A stretch of DNA of 61,361 nucleotides, taken from NCBI GenBank assembly GCA_035643915.1, contig DASQPN010000119.1:1-61361 (forward strand). Direction: 5' to 3'. Below are positions 46,358-56,038 of the stretch, piece after piece. A program made the translations under genes and the position numbers. Every line of letters begins with the position of its first letter. Position 1 is the stretch's first letter. This DNA comes from Terriglobales bacterium. GTDB lineage: Bacteria; Acidobacteriota; Terriglobia; Terriglobales; Acidobacteriaceae. The notes below the pieces were generated by a model. It made no database searches and was not told the DNA's origin. It saw nothing but the letters and a program-made list of their open reading frames with translations.

Positions 46358-47479
46358 CTAGGCGGGTTCCTGTGTGACGATGTGCACGTCCACTGCGGGG
46401 GCGTCCCGGAGGAAACGGTGGACGGCGGAGAAGTACAAATAGCGTCTCCACCCTCGGGTCGCGGATCGTCCAAATACAACCTGGGTGAGATGCTTTTCAT
46501 GCACCACCTCGGCCACGGCGGCTGCCACCGTGGTCCCTTTTACGCGCACCACGGTGGCCCCGACATTTTCCGCAAATTGGACGTTGGCCTGCAGAGTCTT
46601 CTGATTCCGCTGGCTGTCATCCTGTCCCAGGTCGACGTACACGACGTATAGCTCGCCATCCAGAGCCTGCGCCATGCGGGCACCCCGTGCGATGAGGTGC
46701 TGAGCTGCCGGATTCGAACTGATGCAGACGGCGATCCGCTCCCGGACGCCGAAATTCCTTCGGGTCTCCTGTTTGTCGAGATAGGTCTCCAGGCTACGGT
46801 CCACGGCGTGGGCGACCTGACGCAGCGCCAGCTCGCGCAGCGCGATCAGGTTTCCCGGGCGGAAGAAATTGCCCAAGGCGCGCTCTACCCGCTCGAGCGG
46901 GTAGACGTCCCCGCGCCGCATTCGGTTCTGCAGCGCCTCGGGCGTGAGATCCGCCATGACCACTTCGTCTACACGCTTCAGAACCCAGTCTGGAACGGTC
47001 TCCCGCACCTGGATCCCGGTGATGCCTTGGACGGTGGGTGTCACGCTCTCCAGATGCTGGATGTTCATGGTGGAGAGAACATCGATACCCGCGTCGAGCA
47101 GTTCGTACACGTCTTCGTAGCGCTTCCGGTGTTTGCTGCCTTCGATATTGGTGTGCGCCAACTCATCCACGATCGCGACCTGGGGCTTGCGAGCCAGAAT
47201 CGCATCCACATCCATCTCCTCAAAGAGCGCACCCTTGTAATCGACCCGCCGGCGCGGAACCGGCTCCAACTGAGTTGCCAGCTCTGCGGTCGCTTTGCGG
47301 CCGTGAGTCTCAACCACACCAAGCACAACGTCTTCCCCGCGACTGTGGCGCCGGATGGCCTCGCTCAGCATGCTGTAGGTCTTGCCCACACCCGGCGCGT
47401 AGCCGAGGAACAGCTTGAAAACGCCGCCCTTCTTGACAGGGGCGGCTTCTTCCAGCCACTGTTCCGGAGTCTTGGTCAT
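46358..47479 (-). CDS. kdpD: KdpD N-terminal sensor module only (KdpD domain plus Usp domain; no TM or kinase part)
   Basis: Start chosen at ATG 47479. FKLFLGYAPGVGKTYSML, VVETHGR, VDELAHTN, then Usp-like RIAVCISSNPAAQHLIARGARMA...LYVVYV...VVFGRS. Ends without DUF4118 or HisKA. Confidence 0.8.
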   Translation of the reverse strand: MTKTPEQWLEEAAPVKKGGVFKLFLGYAPGVGKTYSMLSEAIRRHSRGEDVVLGVVETHGRKATAELATQLEPVPRRRVDYKGALFEEMDVDAILARKPQVAIVDELAHTNIEGSKHRKRYEDVYELLDAGIDVLSTMNIQHLESVTPTVQGITGIQVRETVPDWVLKRVDEVVMADLTPEALQNRMRRGDVYPLERVERALGNFFRPGNLIALRELALRQVAHAVDRSLETYLDKQETRRNFGVRERIAVCISSNPAAQHLIARGARMAQALDGELYVVYVDLGQDDSQRNQKTLQANVQFAENVGATVVRVKGTTVAAAVAEVVHEKHLTQVVFGRSATRGWRRYLYFSAVHRFLRDAPAVDVHIVTQEPA

Positions 47480-47537
47480 TGCCAAGTATTGTGCGTTAGC
47501 TGCCTGAAATTGTCGAACGTCAGCTACAATCGCCGTC

Positions 47538-48977
47538 GTGAAAGAGACCCTGGCCAAGCAGATCGTCCGCTACCTGGTGGCGGCAGCTGCGGTTTTCGTC
47601 ATCGTTTTCAGCTATCGGGCGATTCGTGTTAGCAACCCGACCACGGTGGCGCTCACGTTCCTGCTGACGGTGCTGATCGTTTCTACGGTCTGGGGACTCC
47701 GGACCTCCGTGTTCACCGCGGTCGTGGCGACCCTGGCCTTCAACTACTACTTTCTGCCTCCGGTTGGCACTTTCAACATCGCCGATCACCAGAATTGGGT
47801 GGCGCTGTTCGCATTTCTTGTCACAGCGGTGATCGCCAGCCAACTGTCGGCCCGGGCCCGGCGCGAAGCCTTGAATGCAAACGAAAGGCGCCGGGACGTT
47901 GAGCGGCTCTACGCCTTCAGCCAGCAACTTCTCTCCAGTGACAATGTCGTCGAGTTGCTGAACGTGTTGCCCAGCTACGTGGTGGAAGCTTTTGGGGTTG
48001 AGGCCGCCGCCATTTCCTTACCCGAACGTCAGGACGTATATCGCTCCAGGGCCGAGATCGGCGCCTTGGAAGCGCATGACTTGCAACTGGTGTGCAGTCG
48101 TGGAGAACCGCGCATCGATCCCCAGAAGAATCTAGCTTTCATGCCGCTGCGTATGGGAGTGCGTACGGTGGGCGCTCTGGGTATTTCGGGGAGCCGGTTG
48201 TCTCGTGGAACGCTGGATGCGATCAGCAGCCTGATTGCCATCGCGATTGAGCGGGCACGAGCGGTCGAAAATTTGAGTCGCACCGAAGCCGCGCGAGCGA
48301 GCGAACAGCTGCGCTCCGTGCTGCTCGATTCGGTTACCCATGAGTTCCGCACCCCGCTGACTGCCATCAAGGCCTCGGTGACTTCTCTGCTATCGAACTC
48401 CCAAATGGATGGGTCGCAGAAACAGGAATTGCTTACCGTCATCAACGAAGAAAGCGACCGGTTGAATCGTCTGGTTGGAGAAGCGGCAGAAATGGCCCAG
48501 CTCGACGCGAACCAAGTGGAGCTGCATCTGGCGTCGCACCCGATCCCCGAGGCTCTCGACAGCGCTCTGGAAGATTCCAAGCAGGTCCTGGGTAAGCACC
48601 CAGTGGAGGTGCGTTTGCCGGCAACTCTGCCGCCCGTGCGCATGGATGCGACCCGGATCAAGGAAGTCCTCATGCACTTGCTGGAGAATGCGGCCAAATA
48701 CTCGCCTCCGGAGTCTCCGATTCACATTACCGGCGAAGTGCGGAATCGCACCCTGATGACCAGCGTCTCGGATCGAGGTGCGGGCATCGACGACTTCGAA
48801 CAAGCACTCATTTTCGATAAGTTCTATCGCGGACGAAATCAGCGGCTGACGGTCCAAGGCACGGGCATGGGACTCGCGATTGCCAAGGCAATCGTTGAAG
48901 CCCACGGTGGGACCATGGGAGTCACCAGCCAACTCGGACACGGGTCGGTCTTTTATTTCACGCTGCCAGTTGCCTAA
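47538..48977 (+). CDS. Histidine kinase corresponding to the KdpD C-terminal half (DUF4118 TM domain, GAF-like, HisKA, HATPase)
   Basis: GTG start. TTVALTFLLTVLIVSTVWGLRTSVFTAVVATLAFNYYFLPPVGTF; H-box VTHEFRTPLTAIKAS; GTGMGLAIAKAIVEAHGG. Confidence 0.8.
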   Translation: MKETLAKQIVRYLVAAAAVFVIVFSYRAIRVSNPTTVALTFLLTVLIVSTVWGLRTSVFTAVVATLAFNYYFLPPVGTFNIADHQNWVALFAFLVTAVIASQLSARARREALNANERRRDVERLYAFSQQLLSSDNVVELLNVLPSYVVEAFGVEAAAISLPERQDVYRSRAEIGALEAHDLQLVCSRGEPRIDPQKNLAFMPLRMGVRTVGALGISGSRLSRGTLDAISSLIAIAIERARAVENLSRTEAARASEQLRSVLLDSVTHEFRTPLTAIKASVTSLLSNSQMDGSQKQELLTVINEESDRLNRLVGEAAEMAQLDANQVELHLASHPIPEALDSALEDSKQVLGKHPVEVRLPATLPPVRMDATRIKEVLMHLLENAAKYSPPESPIHITGEVRNRTLMTSVSDRGAGIDDFEQALIFDKFYRGRNQRLTVQGTGMGLAIAKAIVEAHGGTMGVTSQLGHGSVFYFTLPVA

Positions 48978-48978
48978 G

Positions 48979-49365
48979 TCACACGGCTGACCCAAGCAAG
49001 CTGTAGAGCAGCACCATGAGCACGAAGCTTGCGACCCACACGTAGAGCCAGTCCCGCTCGAGGGCGAAGGCAAACGCGGCGAATCCCACCCGCGCCACCG
49101 GCGTTGCAATCAAGAACAATAGCCCCAACTGGATGATGCCCCGGCCACGCCCTGCCAGGGCCGCGCCCACAATCCCTTTCCAGTGGCGCAATTCTGTCGG
49201 CTCACCGCCAAAGACGCGGTAGTTGGCGTGGGCAAGCCCATGGCGCCGGAGGAAGACCAAGCCCCCGGTGAGCACAATGGCTGCGGACAGGGTCACGCCG
49301 GCACGCAGCAGGTTGGCGATGACGGTTTCTATCTTCTGATCGCTCCAGTCAGCCTTGGTGAACAT
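48979..49365 (-). CDS. DUF1634 membrane protein (usual partner of TauE/SafE)
   Basis: IETVIANLLRAGVTLSAAIVLTGGLVFLRRHG. It lies 2 nt downstream of the TauE-like gene. Confidence 0.65.
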   Translation of the reverse strand: MFTKADWSDQKIETVIANLLRAGVTLSAAIVLTGGLVFLRRHGLAHANYRVFGGEPTELRHWKGIVGAALAGRGRGIIQLGLLFLIATPVARVGFAAFAFALERDWLYVWVASFVLMVLLYSLLGSAV

Positions 49366-49367
49366 CG

Positions 49368-50204
49368 TCAGATCTTTCCCGTGAACGCGCCATAGAGCAT
49401 CTCAGCGCCGAGAGCGACAATCACCGCAGCAAATACCAGTCGCAGCTGCTTTGTTTTGGTGCGGGCCAGGACACGGGCACCTGCCAGAGAACCGGCCAAC
49501 ACACCGAGCATGACCGGCATCGACAACCCCGGGTCCACGTACCCGCGGCTCAAATACACGCCGGCGCTGGCGGCTGCCGTCACTCCGATCATGAAGTTGC
49601 TGGTGGTGGTCGAGACCTTGAAAGGGATTCCCATGGCCTGGTCCATGGCGAGAACTTTCACGGCTCCCGATCCAATCCCAAGAAGCCCGGAAAGCGCCCC
49701 GGCTCCGAACATCAGACTGAATCCCGCGGGAACCCGGTGGACGTAGTATCGCTTTGGACCGCTCAGGGAAGGATACGTGCCGTTCATGCCCAGACGGGTT
49801 GCGAGTTCGTCGGGCTGATCGTCAGCAGGAGACTCAGCCGGAGTCCGGCTGGAGAGATACCCGGAATAGAGAAGAACCAGACCAAAGACGACGCCAATGG
49901 CGGTGGTCGAAACGCTGGCCGCGAGAAAGGCACCGAAGAGCGCTCCTAATGTGGTGGCGATTTCAAGAAACATCCCGATGCGGATGTTGGAGAACCCGTC
50001 CTTCAAATAGGCCGCGGCCGCTCCGGATGAAGTTGCGATTACCGAGACCAGCGAGGCGCCGACCGCATACCGAATGTCCACCTTGAACACCAGGGTGAGC
50101 AAGGGGACCAGCACCACTCCACCGCCCAGGCCGGTGAGAGCCCCCAAAAATCCGGCCATGAACGAGGCCAGCCCAACCAGGACGGTGAATTCCAGGATAT
50201 TCAT
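49368..50204 (-). CDS. TauE/SafE-family sulfite/anion exporter-like permease
   Basis: Start chosen at ATG 50204. MNILEFTVLVGLASFMAGFLGALTGLGGGVVLVPLL, a multi-TM Gly-rich pattern. Confidence 0.75.
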   Translation of the reverse strand: MNILEFTVLVGLASFMAGFLGALTGLGGGVVLVPLLTLVFKVDIRYAVGASLVSVIATSSGAAAAYLKDGFSNIRIGMFLEIATTLGALFGAFLAASVSTTAIGVVFGLVLLYSGYLSSRTPAESPADDQPDELATRLGMNGTYPSLSGPKRYYVHRVPAGFSLMFGAGALSGLLGIGSGAVKVLAMDQAMGIPFKVSTTTSNFMIGVTAAASAGVYLSRGYVDPGLSMPVMLGVLAGSLAGARVLARTKTKQLRLVFAAVIVALGAEMLYGAFTGKI

Positions 50205-50419
50205 GCGACTCCCGCACCAGTGTGCCACAGGGAGTGCTTCCGGGTCTTTGGGTTGGGGGCTGGAACCTTTGATGCCCAGGTCCTTGCTTTGAATCGGGGT
50301 GGGCTCGATTCGCGGAGCCAATCGCCGCGGAAATCGGACTGCCCATGGCGCCCTGGGGGTTCAGGAGCATGAGTTTTACGAGAGCCGTCGGTATTCGGCC
50401 CGTCTCAGCGCTCCCCGGC

Positions 50420-51196
50420 TCAGGATCCGGCATCCCCCAACTGAACGAGCGGGGAGGGCGCGCCGGGCGGATCGGGAAGATGTAGGCCGCACTCAGTTTT
50501 CTGCAATCCAGCCCAACGCCCGGCGCGGGCATCTTCGCCGGGACGGACCGCACGAGTGCAATGAGTGCAACCGATACTGGGGTAGTCGGAATCATGGAGC
50601 GGGTTGTAGGGCACATCATGAGCGCGGACGTAGCCCCACACTTGTTCGCTGCTCCAGTCCACAATCGGGTTGATTTTCACGAGCCGGAACTTCTCGTCCC
50701 ATTCCACTTTGCGTGCCTTCGCACGAACTGAAGTTTGCCCGCGGCGAATGGCCGTGATCCAGGCGCGCAATCCGGCCAGCTTGTCGGCCAGGGGCCTGAC
50801 TTTCCGCAATCCGCAGCACTGATCCGGGTTGGTGCTCCACAGGGCGGGCCCGTAGATGTTTGCTTGATCTTCCGGCGTCAATGGAGAACGCAGTCTTTCG
50901 ACAGTCAAGCCATAGCGCCGCTCCACTCTCTCCATAAGCTCGTAGGTTTCTGGGAAGAGAAAATCCGTATCGACCGTGAACACCCGGAGATTCGGATTGA
51001 CGCCCACCGCGATGTCGACGAGCACCATGCCTTCCACACCGAAACCTGACGCCATCTCGACGCTGTTGCCGAAAGTCTTGAAGGCCCATTCGAGCAACTC
51101 TTGCGGATTCCATGTTTCGGCTAAGCTCTGCGTTCTTTCCACGATCTCGATCACCGATTCGCTCCTAGTCACCCAAAAACGCCTGGTTGTCCACAA
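50420..51196 (-). CDS. cysH: Assimilatory adenylyl-sulfate/phosphoadenylyl-sulfate reductase, thioredoxin-dependent (Fe-S type Cys motifs present)
   Basis: C-terminal KTECGLH. Cluster-type cysteines DQCCGLRKV and SIGCTHCT suggest the APS-reductase subtype. The start may be a few codons downstream of 51196. Confidence 0.85.
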   Translation of the reverse strand: MWTTRRFWVTRSESVIEIVERTQSLAETWNPQELLEWAFKTFGNSVEMASGFGVEGMVLVDIAVGVNPNLRVFTVDTDFLFPETYELMERVERRYGLTVERLRSPLTPEDQANIYGPALWSTNPDQCCGLRKVRPLADKLAGLRAWITAIRRGQTSVRAKARKVEWDEKFRLVKINPIVDWSSEQVWGYVRAHDVPYNPLHDSDYPSIGCTHCTRAVRPGEDARAGRWAGLQKTECGLHLPDPPGAPSPLVQLGDAGS

Positions 51197-51986
51197 AAAC
51201 GTCGAGCACGTTTGCGAGTGGACCAGAGGGGTCCGCCTCGAAATCGCTCATGGCGAGCTCCCCATGGGAGCGCACGGAATCTCCTTGGCCAATCACATCG
51301 CCGACCAGCAGCAGCGTTGGCGCAGGGAGCAGGGGTGCGCTTGGCAAGTTCTTCACCGTGGTGCGATGGATCTGCTCACGGTTCGAACTGGCTCGCGAAA
51401 CGATGGCACAGGCAGTCTCGCCCCTCATCCCCGCCGACATCAGTTGCTGAGAAGTCTGTGCGTAACTGAAGCCGGGCATGTAGATCGCGAGAGTTGCGCC
51501 GGATCGCACGAATGCCTCCCACTCCACGGTCTGGTTGCAATTCGCATGATGGCTGGTAAGAAACACCACCGCGGAAGCGGTGTCGCGCTGCGTTAAGGAC
51601 ACTCGTGCGGCCGCTGCCGATGCCAAAGCCGACGTCACGCCGGGGATAATTTCGAAATCGACGTTGGCCTTGCGGAGCGCACCCATTTCCTCCCCCGCAC
51701 GGCCGAAAATCAGGGGGTCTCCTCCCTTGAGTCGCACCACCTTGAGTCCGAAAGAGGCGAAAGCCACCAACAAAGCGTTGATCTCTGCCTGCTGCACGGC
51801 CTTGCGTCCGCAGCGCTTACCAACGTTCCGCACCTCTGCGCTCTTGGGGACCAGCGCCAGAATCTCGGAACCGATCAGGTCATCGTGCAGCACGGCCTCG
51901 GCCGATTGCAGTACCCGGAGAGCTTTGAGCGTGAGCAACTCCGGATCGCCCGGCCCGGCCCCGACCAAGAAGACCTTACCGTTCAT
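51165..51986 (-). CDS. cobA: Uroporphyrinogen-III C-methyltransferase (SUMT)
   Basis: Start chosen at ATG 51986: MNGKVFLVGAGPGDPELLTLKALRVLQSAEAVLHDDL. The longer tracked ORF (to 52334) overlaps the upstream gene out of frame. Confidence 0.85.
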   Translation of the reverse strand: MNGKVFLVGAGPGDPELLTLKALRVLQSAEAVLHDDLIGSEILALVPKSAEVRNVGKRCGRKAVQQAEINALLVAFASFGLKVVRLKGGDPLIFGRAGEEMGALRKANVDFEIIPGVTSALASAAAARVSLTQRDTASAVVFLTSHHANCNQTVEWEAFVRSGATLAIYMPGFSYAQTSQQLMSAGMRGETACAIVSRASSNREQIHRTTVKNLPSAPLLPAPTLLLVGDVIGQGDSVRSHGELAMSDFEADPSGPLANVLDVFVDNQAFLGD

Positions 51987-52605
51987 GACCCACCCCTTGC
52001 GCAACTCTCTCCCGGGATTGTCGAACCGACTCGCGCACTTCAAACGACTGGCGGCTGGCCGCTGCATGCAACAGGCTGCGGCGACGGTCCGGGTTGAGCG
52101 GACGGGAAAAAAGGCCCTTTCGGATTCTTCCCAACTCCTCGAGCCAGCCCGCGTAGACGGGCGCCAGCTGCGCCTCGAACTCGCGACGCAATCTCTGAGC
52201 AAGCGCTGGGCTGCGTCCTGCCGTCGAGATGGCAACCTGAAGCTCTCCACGGCGAACCACGGCCGGGTAGTAGAAGTCACAGCGGGCGGGATCATCCACC
52301 ACGTTCGACAGAACATGGCGGCTCTGCGCTTCACGGTAGACAGAGTCGTTTACTTCTATGCAGGAGGTGGCCGCGACGACCAGGAAGATCGAGTCCAGAT
52401 CCGCGGGCTGGAATGGACGAGCGTCCCACTCCAACACCCCAGCACGAGCCCAGGCTGCAACCGCCGGTGTTGCCCACGGTGCGACGACCCGAACCTCTGC
52501 ATGAGCAACCAGCAGGCTGCGAATCTTGGATTCGCCGATCTTGCCGGCTCCTACAACCAGACAAGGCCGATCTTCGAGTTTCAGGAACATTGGAAAAAGG
52601 CTCAT
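51976..52605 (-). CDS. Precorrin-2 dehydrogenase / sirohydrochlorin ferrochelatase (SirC/CysG N-terminal type)
   Basis: MFLKLEDRPCLVVGAGKIGESKIRSLLVAHAEVRVVAP. Confidence 0.8.
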   Translation of the reverse strand: MSLFPMFLKLEDRPCLVVGAGKIGESKIRSLLVAHAEVRVVAPWATPAVAAWARAGVLEWDARPFQPADLDSIFLVVAATSCIEVNDSVYREAQSRHVLSNVVDDPARCDFYYPAVVRRGELQVAISTAGRSPALAQRLRREFEAQLAPVYAGWLEELGRIRKGLFSRPLNPDRRRSLLHAAASRQSFEVRESVRQSRERVAQGVGHER

Positions 52606-52632
52606 AGCTATTTCTCTTCCATCTCGTCCGCT

Positions 52633-54336
52633 CTACCCCTCTACCCCGTGCGGCACCCGTCCAGGCGAGGCATCGCGCACGACCGCCGCCACCAACTCGC
52701 CCGCCAGGAATTCCCGCAGTTCGACGTCGCTGTGCCTTGAGAAAAACTGACGCAGGTTTTCGCGAGGTCCACGATCCTCGAGATAGCGCTTTAGCAAGCG
52801 TTCAATCGCACCGGGAACCTCGCTGGCCAGGCATCGGTATCCCACTGGGCGCGCGATCGATTGGTGCATGCCCAGGGCGCCGCCCACGCAGAAGTAGTAG
52901 GCGTCCTCCATCCGATCGCCCACTTTGATCTTTTTGCCTTCGATCCCCAGGTCCGCGATCCAATGCTGGCCACAACTGTTGGGGCATCCGGTGACATGCA
53001 GCTTCAAGTGCTCTTCGAAGCCCGGCAGCCTCTCTTCCAGTTCCTCCACCAGCCAACGTGAGAAGCTCTTGGTCTCGGTGATCGCCAGCTTGCAGAACTC
53101 CGAGCCGCTGCACGCGACCGCCCCGCGCCAGAAAGGCGAACCGTTCACACGGAGTCCTGCCGCATCCAGCTCCTTCACCAACGGCTCGACGTTCGGTCGC
53201 GGCAGGTTGACGATGAGCAGGTTCTGCATGTTGGTCGTACGGAGTTGTCCGTCCGCAAATCGCTCTGAAAGATCCGCCGCGATTTGCATTTGCCGGGCCG
53301 TGATTCGCCCCCGCAAAACAGCAGCGCCCACGAAGAAATATCCCGGTTGTTTTTGGGCGTGAATCCCGACATGATCCCGATAGAGGTCGTCGGGGAGTTG
53401 CTCTTCGGCCGCGGGCTCCAGTGGAAATCCCATCCGGCTCTCGAGCTCTTTCTGGAAGGTCTCTGCGGTCCAGCCGTGCTTGAGGAAAAGGAATTTCAGA
53501 CGGGCGCGTTCGCGGTTTTCACGGAGTACTTCGCTATCCCGGAATATTTCGGCGACCCCGTTGAGAACCGGCACGACCTGGCTCTGTCGCACGAACGCGT
53601 TGAGCCGGGTCGCCAGATGGGGATCGGTCGAGAGTCCACCGCCTATGCGGAGCGAGAAGCCTATCTCCTGCTCGCCTTGGACCCGGCGGCTGACCGCCGT
53701 AAGACCGACGTCATTGATCTCCGGATAAGCACACCAGGAACGGCATCCGGTGATGCAGATTTTGAATTTTCGCGGGAGGTTGTAAAACTCGGCGTTACCG
53801 ACAAAGAACCGGTTGGCTTCGAGAGCCAGGGCGGACGCATCGAAGATTTCGTCTGCATCCACCCCCGCCAGCGGGCACCCGGTGATGTTGCGCGTGTCAT
53901 CGCCGCAGGAGCCCTTGGTGGTCAGTCCAGCTCGCCAGAGAGCATCGAGAACTTCGGGGAGGGCTTCGATGGTCACCCAGTGAAGCTGCACATTTTGACG
54001 AACCGTGAGATCGGCCGAGCCACGCGCATATCGTTCGGTCACTTCGGCGATGGCCCGGAGTTGATGCGCAAGGAGCAGGCCGTTGGGGATTCGGATACGC
54101 ACCATGAAGTAAGGCAACGCCTTACCTTCCCCGCCCTTCCCGCCCACCACCCCGGCACCGTCTCCCTGGGTGTAGACGCCCCACCAGCGAAAGTAGGTGC
54201 CGATCCACTCCGGCGGAATGGAACTGAAGCCTTCCCGCGCGAAACGGCGAATTTCGTCGAGCCCCTCCCACGGGTTCTTCTCCCGCTTCAGGCGCTCGAC
54301 TCGTTGCGCCTTCGTCTCTTTGGCTGGATTGTTCAT
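52633..54336 (-). CDS. sir: Assimilatory sulfite reductase hemoprotein (ferredoxin/NiR-SiR family)
   Basis: Two NiR/SiR ferredoxin-like halves. Siroheme and 4Fe-4S Cys motifs ACSGSEFCK and VTGCPNSCGQHW. Confidence 0.9.
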   Translation of the reverse strand: MNNPAKETKAQRVERLKREKNPWEGLDEIRRFAREGFSSIPPEWIGTYFRWWGVYTQGDGAGVVGGKGGEGKALPYFMVRIRIPNGLLLAHQLRAIAEVTERYARGSADLTVRQNVQLHWVTIEALPEVLDALWRAGLTTKGSCGDDTRNITGCPLAGVDADEIFDASALALEANRFFVGNAEFYNLPRKFKICITGCRSWCAYPEINDVGLTAVSRRVQGEQEIGFSLRIGGGLSTDPHLATRLNAFVRQSQVVPVLNGVAEIFRDSEVLRENRERARLKFLFLKHGWTAETFQKELESRMGFPLEPAAEEQLPDDLYRDHVGIHAQKQPGYFFVGAAVLRGRITARQMQIAADLSERFADGQLRTTNMQNLLIVNLPRPNVEPLVKELDAAGLRVNGSPFWRGAVACSGSEFCKLAITETKSFSRWLVEELEERLPGFEEHLKLHVTGCPNSCGQHWIADLGIEGKKIKVGDRMEDAYYFCVGGALGMHQSIARPVGYRCLASEVPGAIERLLKRYLEDRGPRENLRQFFSRHSDVELREFLAGELVAAVVRDASPGRVPHGVEG

Positions 54337-54378
54337 AAAAACAAAAAGCCCACCGCCAGATATGTCTCTGGCGGTGGG
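54337..54378 (-). terminator. Intrinsic terminator (attenuator) between the Cys-rich sORF and the sir start codon
   Basis: Minus strand: CCCACCGCCAGA (54378-54367), GACATA, TCTGGCGGTGGG (54360-54349), a perfect 12-bp stem. It is followed by CTTTTTGTTTTT (54348-54337) and then immediately the sir ATG (54336). Confidence 0.75.
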
Positions 54379-54405
54379 CGATAATTGCTGATTCTTAAGG
54401 ACTTA

Positions 54406-54495
54406 CTAGGTCAGCAGCCTCCCTGTGCCAGAAGACGCGCGCGTACAACAACAAGTACAACAACACGCGATCGAGGTCTGGCAGGAAGCCAACAT
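54406..54495 (-). CDS. Cysteine-rich leader peptide sORF (29 aa), candidate attenuator leader of the sir operon
   Basis: Hand-read: ATG TTG GCT TCC TGC CAG ACC TCG ATC GCG TGT TGT TGT ACT TGT TGT TGT ACG CGC GCG TCT TCT GGC ACA GGG AGG CTG CTG ACC TAG (TAA) = MLASCQTSIACCCTCCCTRASSGTGRLLT. Confidence 0.6.
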   Translation of the reverse strand: MLASCQTSIACCCTCCCTRASSGTGRLLT

Positions 54496-54504
54496 GATCT
54501 GGCG

Positions 54505-54533
54505 ATAGTAGAGGCTGGTGGAAATCCTGTCAA
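54505..54533 (-). promoter_or_regulatory. Sigma70-like promoter for the Cys leader (predicted leaderless or near-leaderless transcript)
   Basis: Minus strand: TTGACA (54533-54528), 17 nt, TACTAT (54510-54505), then 9 nt to the ATG. No SD. Confidence 0.4.
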
Positions 54534-54612
54534 CTCGGTTCTGTCGCTCGAGCTATCAAAACTTCGAATAGCGGTAATCGAAAAATTCGAATGGTCAGCC
54601 CCAGGTCACCGT

Positions 54613-54641
54613 TTGACTAACACCTTCGCCTCCACTACTCT
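54613..54641 (+). promoter_or_regulatory. Sigma70-like promoter for the His leader (predicted leaderless or near-leaderless transcript)
   Basis: TTGACT (54613-54618), 17 nt, TACTCT (54636-54641), then 8 nt to the ATG at 54650. No SD. Confidence 0.4.
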
Positions 54642-54649
54642 CTAGGTCG

Positions 54650-54718
54650 ATGTCATCTCATCGCCATCATCGCCATCATCATCACGCGCACAGCGCGTTG
54701 GCGGGGGTGCATTCCTGA
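54650..54718 (+). CDS. Histidine-rich leader peptide sORF (22 aa) of the his operon
   Basis: Hand-read: ATG TCA TCT CAT CGC CAT CAT CGC CAT CAT CAT CAC GCG CAC AGC GCG TTG GCG GGG GTG CAT TCC TGA = MSSHRHHRHHHHAHSALAGVHS. Eight His fall within 11 codons. Confidence 0.75.
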   Translation: MSSHRHHRHHHHAHSALAGVHS

Positions 54719-54743
54719 GTTAGACCAGCACTCATCGAAGTTC

Positions 54744-54783
54744 AGCCCGCTGACGCAAAAGGCTCAGCGGGCTTTTTGTTTTT
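54744..54783 (+). terminator. Intrinsic terminator (attenuator) between the His leader and hisI
   Basis: Perfect 10-bp stem AGCCCGCTGA (54744-54753) / TCAGCGGGCT (54764-54773), 10-nt loop, then TTTTGTTTTT. The hisI SD GGAGG follows at 54793-54797. Confidence 0.75.
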
Positions 54784-54803
54784 CCGCGAAACGGAGGCCG
54801 CGG

Positions 54804-55172
54804 ATGGATATGGAGATTGACTTCAACAAAATGCAGGGTCTGGTACCAGCCATCGTGCAAGACGCAGGCTCGGACCAGATCCTAATGCTCGGCTTCATGA
54901 ATCAGGAGGCGTTCGAGCGCACGTTGCGCTGCGGATACGTGACCTTCTTCAGCAGAACCCGCAACCAACTGTGGACCAAAGGCGAAAGTTCGGGCAATCG
55001 GCTGAAGGTCATCTCCGTAAGCACCGACTGCGACCGTGACTCATTTCTGGTGCGCGTCCAGGTGGAGGGAGCGGGGGTGGTCTGCCACTTGGGAACGCGC
55101 TCCTGCTTCACTCAGGAGATCCCGCTTTCCTCTGCGCCAAAGCTGGAAGAGGCGCGGGAGATCCAGCGATGA
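54804..55172 (+). CDS. hisI: Phosphoribosyl-AMP cyclohydrolase (monofunctional, no HisE domain)
   Basis: [54 protein letters not shown]; 122 aa. Confidence 0.9.
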
Positions 55173-56038
55173 AACTGCGCATCGGTATCCCAAAAGGCAG
55201 CTTGCAGGAAGCAACGCTCCAACTCTTTGCCCGCGCGGGTCTGGAGGTGTACACGAGTGCGAGATCTTATTTCGCCTCGACCGCTGATCCTGAGATCGAG
55301 TGCATGCTGATCCGCGCGCAGGAAATGGCACGCTACGTCGAGCACGGAGCCTTGGACGCCGGCCTCACCGGGCTCGACTGGGTGGTGGAGAGCGGACTTC
55401 AAGTCATTCCGGTCGTTGATTTGATCTACGCGAAACGGAGTCGCGGAAAAGTGAGGTGGGTTCTTGCCGCTCCGGAAGACTCCCCGTTTCATCGAGCCGA
55501 AGACCTTTCCGGGCGGATTATCGCCACCGAACTCGTAAACGTTACGCGCAACTACTTTCGCGGCAAAGGTGTCGAGGTCGAGGTAGAGTTCTCCTGGGGC
55601 GCCACTGAAGTCAAACCCCCCATGCTGGCCGACGCGATCGTGGAGGTTACAGAGACGGGCAGTTCCCTCAAAGCAAATCGCTTGCGCATCCTGGAGACCG
55701 TTCTCGAATCGAACACCCAGGTGATTGCCAACAAGACAGCATGGGGGGATGGCGAGAAGCGTCGCAAGATCGAGAACCTCGCCCTGATGCTCTGTGGCGC
55801 GATGGAAGCCCAGGATCGCGTCGGACTGATGCTGAACGTGCGCAAGGAGAACCTCGACCGTGTTTTGGCCGTGCTGCCCGCACTGAAGAAACCGACCATC
55901 TCGACACTGAGCGACGGCGAATGGGTCGCAGTAAACACGGTGATCGAGGAATCGGAGGCTTGGGAGGTGATTCCACGGCTGAAAGCGGCCCAGGCGCAAG
56001 GTATCGTCGAGTACCCCCTGAATAAGGTGGTGATGTAA
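55169..56038 (+). CDS. hisG: ATP phosphoribosyltransferase, long form
   Basis: ATGA overlap with his[25 protein letters not shown]...; 289 aa including the C-terminal regulatory domain. Confidence 0.9.

Follow-up and report, generated by a model that had tools for sequence, protein, structure and literature searches.

A candidate ribosome-mediated cysteine attenuator upstream of a sulfite-reductase operon in Acidobacteriota

Introduction

The element described here lies in a stretch of 61,361 nucleotides from a Terriglobales bacterium of the Acidobacteriota (contig DASQPN010000119.1 of assembly GCA_035643915.1), the whole of which is referred to below as the window. It occupies the minus strand immediately upstream of sir, which encodes a ferredoxin-type sulfite/nitrite reductase, and comprises a small open reading frame (sORF) with a run of cysteine codons, an intrinsic transcription terminator and two further RNA segments, one able to compete for the 5′ arm of the terminator and the other able to pair with that competitor. 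From comparative sequence evidence and folding models, we consider it highly probable that this leader is a four-segment ribosome-mediated transcription attenuator that reads the charging of tRNA(Cys). The structural features of the classical attenuators, namely a sORF of regulatory codons, an intrinsic terminator, a mutually exclusive antiterminator and a suitable spacing between them, are all found, the effect of the spacing in model calculations. The genes that would be controlled, including sir, sirC, cobA, cysH and tauE, also fit the rule that the operon synthesizes the amino acid that is sensed.

The classical attenuators of transcription that work through a leader peptide cover trp, his, leu, thr, phe and ilv but leave a gap at cysteine, which this element, if the reading is true, would fill as the missing member. 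It would extend terminator-based attenuation to this amino acid and to the Acidobacteriota, which are abundant in soil and hard to cultivate. Its presence could readily mark the sulfur-assimilation regulon when soil metagenomes are annotated, and it could also serve as a testable case of leaderless translation coupled to termination and as a compact cysteine-responsive genetic part. An earlier note on this DNA had proposed the attenuator from the cysteine run, the terminator and one competing structure. The RNA segment termed R1 below, the promoter abutting the AUG and a histidine leader on the opposite strand go beyond that note.

The cysteine leader and its promoter

The sORF has 29 codons and a stop. 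It reads ATG TTG GCT TCC TGC CAG ACC TCG ATC GCG TGT TGT TGT ACT TGT TGT TGT to the end of the cysteine run and continues ACG CGC GCG TCT TCT GGC ACA GGG AGG CTG CTG ACC TAG. Six of its seven cysteine codons fall within codons 11-17 and the other is codon 5. A search of both strands of the 61-kb window in six frames found no other open frame with at least five cysteines in eight codons. The terminator is a perfect 13-bp stem (54379-54348, ΔG -29.1 kcal/mol) followed by UUUUUGUUUUU. The coordinates and sequence given for the sORF in the earlier note, with six cysteines in seven codons, are confirmed, and so are a terminator hairpin beginning 27 nt 3′ of the TAG, a U-tract and the sir ATG at 54336; the 12-bp stem of that description becomes 13 bp once an outer G-C pair is counted. 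The competing segments that it had pointed out, TCTGGCACAGGG (54432-54421), TGCTGA (54416-54411) and TCAGCA (54391-54386), are likewise all in place.

The 164-nt leader folds at -70.5 kcal/mol (z = -5.4), and none of 200 dinucleotide shuffles folds as well. A chance origin of the leader is excluded, because it contains the only such frame in the window, folds with this z-score and is conserved at 78 of 80 related loci. A simple (TGT)n microsatellite was also considered and is ruled out by the conserved frame, flanks and partner helices. The leader peptide has no Pfam or NCBIfam match at E <= 10, and an exact look-up of ten representative leader peptides among about 15 billion public proteins found none present as a called gene. 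An Rfam cmscan of positions 53800-55200 at E <= 10 gave only sub-threshold matches to the cysteine leader, with RAGATH-24 at 16 bits against a gathering score of 45.3; no T-box, SAM/S-box or other riboswitch or leader family was matched.

The sORF is preceded by a sigma-70-type promoter, the sole one within 1.5 kb, which matches the consensus at 10 of 12 positions. In the window, 9 nt separate its -10 box from the AUG of the sORF, and a Shine-Dalgarno (SD) sequence is absent. The arrangement recurs in relatives, 74 of 79 related sequences carrying TTGAC-N16-18-TAnnnT with a -10 box that ends 9-10 nt (mode) 5′ of the ATG; in-frame ATGs farther upstream in these relatives fall 5′ of the promoter and are therefore irrelevant. 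Judged from the position of the promoter, transcription would start at the AUG of the sORF or a few nucleotides before it, and the sORF is predicted to be leaderless or nearly so. The sir ATG itself directly adjoins the terminator U-tract (54336-54348, minus strand) without an SD sequence; just 9 of 79 related loci have an SD-like tetramer within the interval 4-16 nt upstream of the sir start as defined by tblastn, and hisI, on the opposite strand, has a canonical GGAGG. Table 1 lists the features of the locus together with other operons that carry the module.

Table 1. Features of the cysteine leader, its surroundings and the non-sir operons preceded by the same module. Positions are those of the window; L numbers are metagenome loci
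Feature	Position or locus	Strand	Remarks
Sigma-70-type promoter	54505..54533	minus	TTGACA 54533-54528, 17-nt spacer, TACTAT 54510-54505
Leader sORF, 29 codons + TAG	54406..54495	minus	Encodes MLASCQTSIACCCTCCCTRASSGTGRLLT; second stop TAA 54405-54403
R1 (GGCUUCCUGCCAGA), anti-antiterminator	54477..54490	minus	Would pair with R2 plus adjoining GGGAGGCU
Cys run, codons 11-17	54445..54465	minus	UGU UGU UGU ACU UGU UGU UGU; proposed stall site
R2 (UCUGGCACAGGG), switch segment, codons 22-25	54421..54432	minus	Partner R1 or R3
Stop-codon hairpin UGCUGA/UCAGCA	54386..54416	minus	Both stops in loop; nested inside antiterminator
R3 (GCCCACCGCCAGA), terminator 5′ arm	54367..54379	minus	Partner of R2 in antiterminator
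R4 (UCUGGCGGUGGGC), terminator 3′ arm	54348..54360	minus	
U-tract (UUUUUGUUUUU)	54337..54347	minus	Runs directly into sir ATG 54336
sir operon, putatively controlled	48979..54336	minus	Six genes
sir, ferredoxin-type sulfite/nitrite reductase	52633-54336	minus	ATG at 54336
sirC-like gene, precorrin-2 dehydrogenase/ferrochelatase	51976-52605	minus	
cobA, uroporphyrinogen-III methyltransferase	about 51165-51990	minus	
cysH	50420-51196	minus	
tauE, TauE-family exporter	49368-50321	minus	
DUF1634	48979-49365	minus	
His-leader promoter	54613-54618 and 54636-54641	plus	TTGACT, 17 nt, TACTCT; 8 nt then AUG
His-leader sORF	54650-54718	plus	Encodes MSSHRHHRHHHHAHSALAGVHS; 7 His in 10 codons
His-leader GC-rich hairpin + U-run	about 54744-54785	plus	Then hisI (54804), hisG, hisD
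cysD-cysN	L119, L152, L161, L183		NCBIfam CysD 457.5 vs 413, CysN 603.8 vs 590
cysK	L103		NCBIfam 461.2 vs cut-off 351
cysG-cysH	L102, L121, L137, L169, L193		NCBIfam CysG 468.6 vs 400
sirC-cobA-cysH	L107, L198, L146, L156, L132, L131		Not scored
cobA-cysH	L173		Not scored
cysH-ridA-SDR	L127, L130, L134, L154		NCBIfam CysH 266 vs 154
Rhodanese-type sulfurtransferase	L124, L191		Below NCBIfam cut-off

Conservation in related genomes

The 80 loci that best matched the Sir protein (71-90% identity) in a collection of one genome per species were compared, nearly all of them labelled Acidobacteriota, Terriglobales, Acidobacteriaceae or Candidatus Sulfotelmatobacter. Conservation upstream of sir orthologues had been named in the earlier note as a check on the proposal, and the outcome is favourable: the sORF and terminator are present at 78 of the 80 loci, with stems that covary. 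The Cys-run sORF ends 63-192 nt before sir in these leaders, a typical one being MSESQNLRAVCCCTCCCCACVCTGAGRLLT, and all 78 leader-bearing loci also have a hairpin (ΔG -17 to -31) with a U-run, at a distance of 6 to about 130 nt from sir. When 578 kb of related loci were searched in six frames, 76 Cys runs were found at the leader position and 4 elsewhere.

Leaders of the relatives contain a median of 7 Cys codons (5-10 per leader), with the run at codons 11-18 and with indels in multiples of 3, and the N-terminal third of the peptide is highly variable. Over the 79 leader sequences of the alignment used for all helix tests (alignment A1), the median sORF is 30 codons long, with 12 nt between the last Cys codon of the run and R2, 12 nt between R2 and the stop, and 28 nt between the stop codon and R3. 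The choice of cysteine codon is also distinctive. The share of UGU among Cys codons is 60% for the leaders, 10% for the 80 sir genes and 28% for the long open reading frames of the window, and two core Cys codons (columns 77-85 of the alignment) are UGU in 79 of 79 sequences, while the sir genes use about 90% UGC. The fixed rare UGU may serve to keep the apical loop unstructured or may tune the sensitivity to tRNA charging via wobble decoding; in the latter case, it would suggest how such sensitivity is set.

The gene order sir-sirC-(cobA)-cysH is conserved in the related genomes, the presence of cobA being under-counted with a query that had a wrong start and a partial codon. At the two loci without a leader (L066 and L069, both at 73% Sir identity), sirC and cysH are likewise missing downstream, and the Sir-like gene there may have a different function, such as nitrite reduction. 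These two carry non-acidobacterial labels (uncultured bacterium and Methylomirabilota). Three leader-bearing loci (L017, L037 and L079) come from metagenome-assembled genomes labelled Verrucomicrobiia, Candidatus Eisenbacteria and Candidatus Acidiferrales, which reflects either mis-binned acidobacterial contigs or a wider spread of the element.

A metagenome scan with a pattern that required neither an ATG nor a stop (TGTTGTTG, a gap, CTGGCG, a gap and CCCAYCGCCAG) returned at least 120 loci. Among the matches listed, the Cys frame is open in 114 of the 118 usable instances, against 53 and 85 for the other frames, an in-frame ATG is present in all 118, and in 115 the distance from CUGGCG to the stop is exactly 17 nt.

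Mutually exclusive RNA structures

The terminator helix R3:R4 is 95.7% paired over the 79 aligned sequences, and 7 of its 13 pairs have changed on both sides. None of 500 shuffles reaches the observed covariation score, and sliding the register lowers pairing to 27-47%. In the alignment, the antiterminator R2:R3 consists of a 7-bp core, a conserved 2-nt mismatch and a 3-bp distal helix, and is 76.7% paired, with double changes at position 103/171 (G-C/A-U) and at the helix edge. For the window, the unconstrained minimum free energy (MFE) structure of the segment from R2 to R3 is the antiterminator itself (ΔG -21.0), a 6-bp helix with a distal 2-3 bp enclosing the stop-codon hairpin, which brings R2 and R3 together. 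Taken alone, this segment forms the R2:R3 helix, with 8 bp or more, in 74 of the 79 sequences. The stop-codon hairpin is 83.5% paired across the alignment, pair 118/148 being U-A in 34 sequences, U-G in 32 and C-G in 6.

Compensation in divergent lineages points in the same direction. Three lineages with altered stems (L064, L068 and L075) keep R2:R3 by compensatory change, as UUCUGACGC:GCGUCAGAA, and the helix is retained as GGGCGG:CCGCCC in L050, by other changes in L076 and L013, and via G-U pairs in L041 and L030. The first base of codon 22, which changes the encoded amino acid (S/T/A/P), covaries with its R3 partner (U-A in 41 sequences, A-U in 9; Fisher p = 0.001, uncorrected for phylogeny). 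The antiterminator with its nested stop-codon helix, seen by eye in the earlier note, is thus borne out both by the folds and by these compensatory changes.

A third pairing had not been noticed before. In all 79 sequences, the full-length MFE structure combines the terminator with a helix in which R2 is paired to an upstream segment, R1, at about nt 7-30 of the sORF. In the window, R1:R2 closes a long 5′ hairpin (ΔG -35.0) with the Cys run at its apex in the MFE structure. Beside the CCAG/CUGG core of this helix, R1[+1] and R2[-1] covary (A-U in 31 sequences, U-A in 7, G-U in 7; Fisher p = 0.004, uncorrected for phylogeny).

Constraint from these pairings is also visible at synonymous sites. 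The entropy of third codon positions is 0.23-0.81 bits where they are paired and 0.77-1.56 bits where they are unpaired, and within R2 those that pair are conserved, while the single third position of the internal loop varies freely. Beyond the Cys run, conservation appears to track RNA pairing and not the peptide, and the unusual conservation of the terminator stem is as expected of a segment with two pairing partners.

Proposed mechanism of attenuation

From the elements observed, their conservation and covariation, their geometry and their gene context, we infer translation of the sORF, stalling on it and a regulatory response, as follows. As the leader emerges, R1 would pair with R2 to form the long hairpin, whose apex holds the Cys codons. 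Given enough cysteine, the ribosome would traverse the seven Cys codons, reach the stop, melt the stop-codon hairpin and cover the 3′ edge of R2; behind it, R1 would recapture the R2 core, so that R3:R4 could form and transcription would end at the U-tract before sir. A shortage of Cys-tRNA(Cys) would stall the ribosome in the UGU run (codons 11-17), where it would separate R1 from R2 and leave R2 free, since 12 nt lie between the final Cys codon and the start of R2. On its emergence, R3 would then be captured by R2 together with the nested hairpin, and R4 would be left partnerless, allowing read-through into sir-sirC-cobA-cysH-tauE. Without translation, the R1:R2 hairpin would favour termination.

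This scheme was modelled by folding the window leader with a ribosome footprint of -15 to +11 around the A site masked. With the ribosome at any Cys codon of the run (11-17), R2 is free and R2:R3 forms in a modelled transcript ending at R3, in agreement with the earlier proposal that a stall on the Cys run frees the antiterminator. With the ribosome at the stop codon, the model loses R2:R3, re-forms the R1:R2 core (7 bp) and leaves R3 for R4. The companion proposal, that a ribosome at the stop would block the antiterminator by sitting on it, is therefore right as to the loss of the antiterminator, but the masked fold has R2 mostly recaptured by R1 and not sat upon. After R4 has been made, the terminator (-29.1) always exceeds the antiterminator (-21.0) in stability, so the choice would have to be kinetic, as in the trp attenuator. 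If the scheme is true, ribosome loading on a 5′-terminal AUG of the nascent RNA must also keep pace with RNA polymerase.

Contrary evidence and alternative explanations

Several observations weigh against the attenuator as just described. R1:R2 only moderately exceeds shuffled sequences (12.3 vs 6.9 bp, -40.2 vs -34.8 kcal/mol), and 63% of shuffled R1 segments still pair over at least 6 bp because R2 is G-rich. RNAalifold applied to the 79-sequence alignment recovers the terminator alone, and the covariation of the antiterminator rests on few positions and a few divergent lineages; formal covariation is limited here because R2 and R3 are so strongly conserved. The shuffle z-scores of the antiterminator are weak, mostly -1 to -3, because the shuffles preserved the G-rich composition and the nested hairpin, and we do not rely on them. 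In the absence of both a ribosome and R4, the equilibrium of the window leader prefers R2:R3 over R1:R2, so that a default-off state needs R1:R2 to form first, by folding kinetics. Of R2, no more than about 3 nt would lie under a ribosome at the stop codon, and the branch for sufficient cysteine therefore relies on recapture by R1 and on steric hindrance, both of them presumed. The scheme further assumes for this phylum that initiation can occur at an AUG without an SD sequence, behind a leader of about 0-4 nt.

Other ways of using the same parts can be conceived. The sORF could act as a translational attenuator of the mycobacterial type, in which the ribosome on it gates the sir start or Rho-dependent polarity, regulation not being exerted at the hairpin with its U-tract. 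This is how the nearest system studied by experiment, that of the polycysteine sORFs of mycobacteria, operates (10.1101/834739); the Cys sORF likewise looks leaderless, and the sir AUG abuts the terminator, where a re-formed R3:R4 could affect initiation. However, the Cys tract of the window pairs with the sir initiation region at -6.8 kcal/mol, against -7.1 for shuffles, and so shows no specific pairing. A canonical terminator with a GC-rich stem (13 bp) and U-run is kept in 78 of 78 leaders, the variable distance from terminator to sir (6 to about 130 nt) suits termination better than masking of a start site, and R2 competes precisely for the 5′ arm of the terminator; we regard this alternative as highly unlikely. 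A signal of general translation capacity, or of a sulfur-independent stress, would exploit the fact that any slowing of the lead ribosome within codons 8-18 or so gives the same structure as a cysteine stall. It is hard to reconcile with a sORF whose sole invariant coding feature is 5-10 Cys codons with fixed rare UGU, with controlled genes that all belong to sulfate assimilation or cysteine synthesis, and with a neighbouring his operon that uses His codons instead, and the chance that it applies is very slight.

The two remaining alternatives dispense with the ribosome as sensor. A protein or small ligand might bind the leader RNA, at the UGU repeats or at R2/R3, the reading frame being incidental. 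The UGU core and R2, R3 and R4 are indeed conserved at the nucleotide level, synonymous sites included, and TRAP-type and riboswitch attenuators also use terminator/antiterminator competition. Against such a ligand stand the survival of AUG, frame and stop position through indels and in differing operons, the in-frame variation in the number and arrangement of cysteines (CCCTCCC, CACCCC, CQCCTCCC), the fixed position of the promoter right at the AUG, the lack of any matching Rfam family, and the adjoining His-codon sibling of the same layout; a bound ligand is very improbable, if a little less so than the general translation signal. The least probable of these alternatives is that the sORF encodes a functional Cys-rich micropeptide, for instance a metal- or sulfur-binding one, that is co-expressed with the sulfur genes behind a leaky terminator. 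Peptide length and Cys content are conserved, and Canestrari et al. raise a small-protein role for conserved non-Cys residues of the mycobacterial sORFs (10.1101/834739). Yet conservation outside the run follows RNA pairing, the N-terminal third is highly variable, the peptide matches nothing in Pfam or NCBIfam, and a micropeptide gives no reason for R2 to mimic the 3′ arm of the terminator, still less for that mimicry to covary.

A candidate cysteine regulon

The prediction of the earlier note that the sir operon, as a source of sulfide for cysteine, is the target of the element agrees with the gene identities, and the module also precedes other operons for cysteine synthesis and sulfate assimilation. 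Among the metagenome matches listed, about 85 have sir downstream and 24 with enough flank have other genes. All 24 are bona fide poly-Cys leaders with terminators, and sulfur-assimilation genes come next in 23 of them (Table 1). The sole non-sulfur context of the 24 is L148:2867-3373 (minus strand), a poly-Cys leader and terminator with a histidine kinase gene 417 nt downstream. This gene context provides strong independent evidence that the module would respond to cysteine or sulfur status.

If true, the module has been copied before at least six operon types (sir, cysDN, cysK, cysG/cobA-cysH, cysH-ridA and rhodanese). No convincing contig with two leader copies was found in the flanks examined, and the regulon is therefore drawn across contigs and not within one genome. 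With that basis, we lean, though only slightly, towards the view that sulfate assimilation and cysteine synthesis in Terriglobia-type Acidobacteria form a regulon run by a portable RNA module and not primarily by a CysB- or CymR-like factor.

Comparison with known leader-peptide systems

The cysteine leader shares with the enterobacterial trp, his, leu, thr, pheA and ilv attenuators a short open reading frame rich in codons for the end product, helices 1:2, 2:3 and 3:4 that are exclusive of one another (1:2 being predicted here with moderate support), and a terminator placed just before the first biosynthetic gene; in both, the terminator is more stable than the antiterminator, which makes the choice kinetic, and the genes make the amino acid that is sensed. 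Unlike these attenuators, it would sense cysteine, has no SD sequence and an AUG about 9-10 nt after the -10 box, and belongs to the Acidobacteriota. Its regulatory codons lie at the apex between segments 1 and 2, whereas those of the enterobacterial systems lie inside segment 1, and it further differs in having segment 2 within the coding region and the stop codon in a hairpin nested in the antiterminator. The two groups have no sequence or Rfam relationship.

Cysteine codons in leaders have been described in other settings. The leaderless polycysteine sORFs of mycobacteria act on translation, the Cys tract sequestering the SD sequence, and reporters show no transcription termination; the same study, by Canestrari et al. 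in 2020, states that attenuation for cysteine mediated by an upstream open reading frame (uORF) had not been described before (10.1101/834739). Common to those sORFs and the present leader are a poly-Cys frame of ~30 codons with which the transcript begins (in the present leader, as predicted from the promoter), the lack of an SD sequence, a position before sulfur or cysteine genes, the occurrence of several copies that form a regulon (here a candidate one) and a proposed sensing of Cys-tRNA by stalling. The mycobacterial sORFs are without a terminator, whereas the leader described here has a conserved terminator/antiterminator, and its Cys tract does not pair specifically with the start of sir; sequence similarity is absent and the phylum differs. 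As early as 2005, Seliverstov et al. had pointed out leader peptides with Cys in Actinobacteria, where terminators are absent from them (PMC1262725).

The closest terminator-associated case is the uORFC-8-2 motif, which Brewer et al. (2021) described before cysS in Rhodobacterales and predicted to be an attenuator with a Cys-codon uORF and an intrinsic terminator (PMC8632094). It has two tandem Cys codons, mostly UGC, at about positions 14-15 inside the first stem; it is alphaproteobacterial, controls a tRNA synthetase gene and is a prediction only, with no antiterminator or regulon described. Compared by description, the present leader has 5-10 apical Cys codons and, among the contexts examined, never has cysS downstream. 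In a 2010 survey of attenuators, almost none of those predicted in Acidobacteriota had an assigned function (PMC2965389). Searches of open-access full text found no description of such an attenuator for Acidobacteria or for sulfite-reductase or sulfate-assimilation operons, and none of a terminator-based Cys attenuator of a biosynthetic operon. The novelty claimed in the earlier note was somewhat overstated, in view of the cysS uORF with its terminator (PMC8632094) and the Actinobacteria leaders of 2005 (PMC1262725). The principle itself is well known, and the novelty lies in combining four features: a terminator/antiterminator switch specific for cysteine, a promoter-abutting sORF without an SD sequence, apical regulatory codons between segments 1 and 2, and modular spread over a candidate sulfur regulon in Acidobacteriota.

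A histidine leader and other neighbouring features

Divergent from the cysteine leader and in the same intergenic region lies a second leader, with a run of histidine codons, upstream of a his operon on the plus strand; it is conserved in the 6 related loci that have the his operon as divergent neighbour. Its layout is that of the cysteine leader, with a -10 box just before the AUG and no SD sequence, and in function it would correspond to the well-known his attenuator. Rfam matches are sub-threshold only (Trp_leader at 19.2 bits, Thr_leader at 16.8 bits), and the peptide has no Pfam or NCBIfam match at E <= 10. Attenuation by a leader peptide thus appears to operate for histidine too in this organism, with a sORF that abuts its promoter in the same way, and this local precedent counts in favour of the cysteine attenuator.

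Beyond the sir operon, a KdpD-like sensor is split over the two strands. The N-terminal sensor and Usp part occupies 46358-47557 (minus strand), the other half, with DUF4118, HisKA and HATPase_c, occupies 47538-48977 (plus strand), and the divergent open reading frames overlap at their starts by about 20 nt. The arrangement could reflect an inversion or two separate genes.

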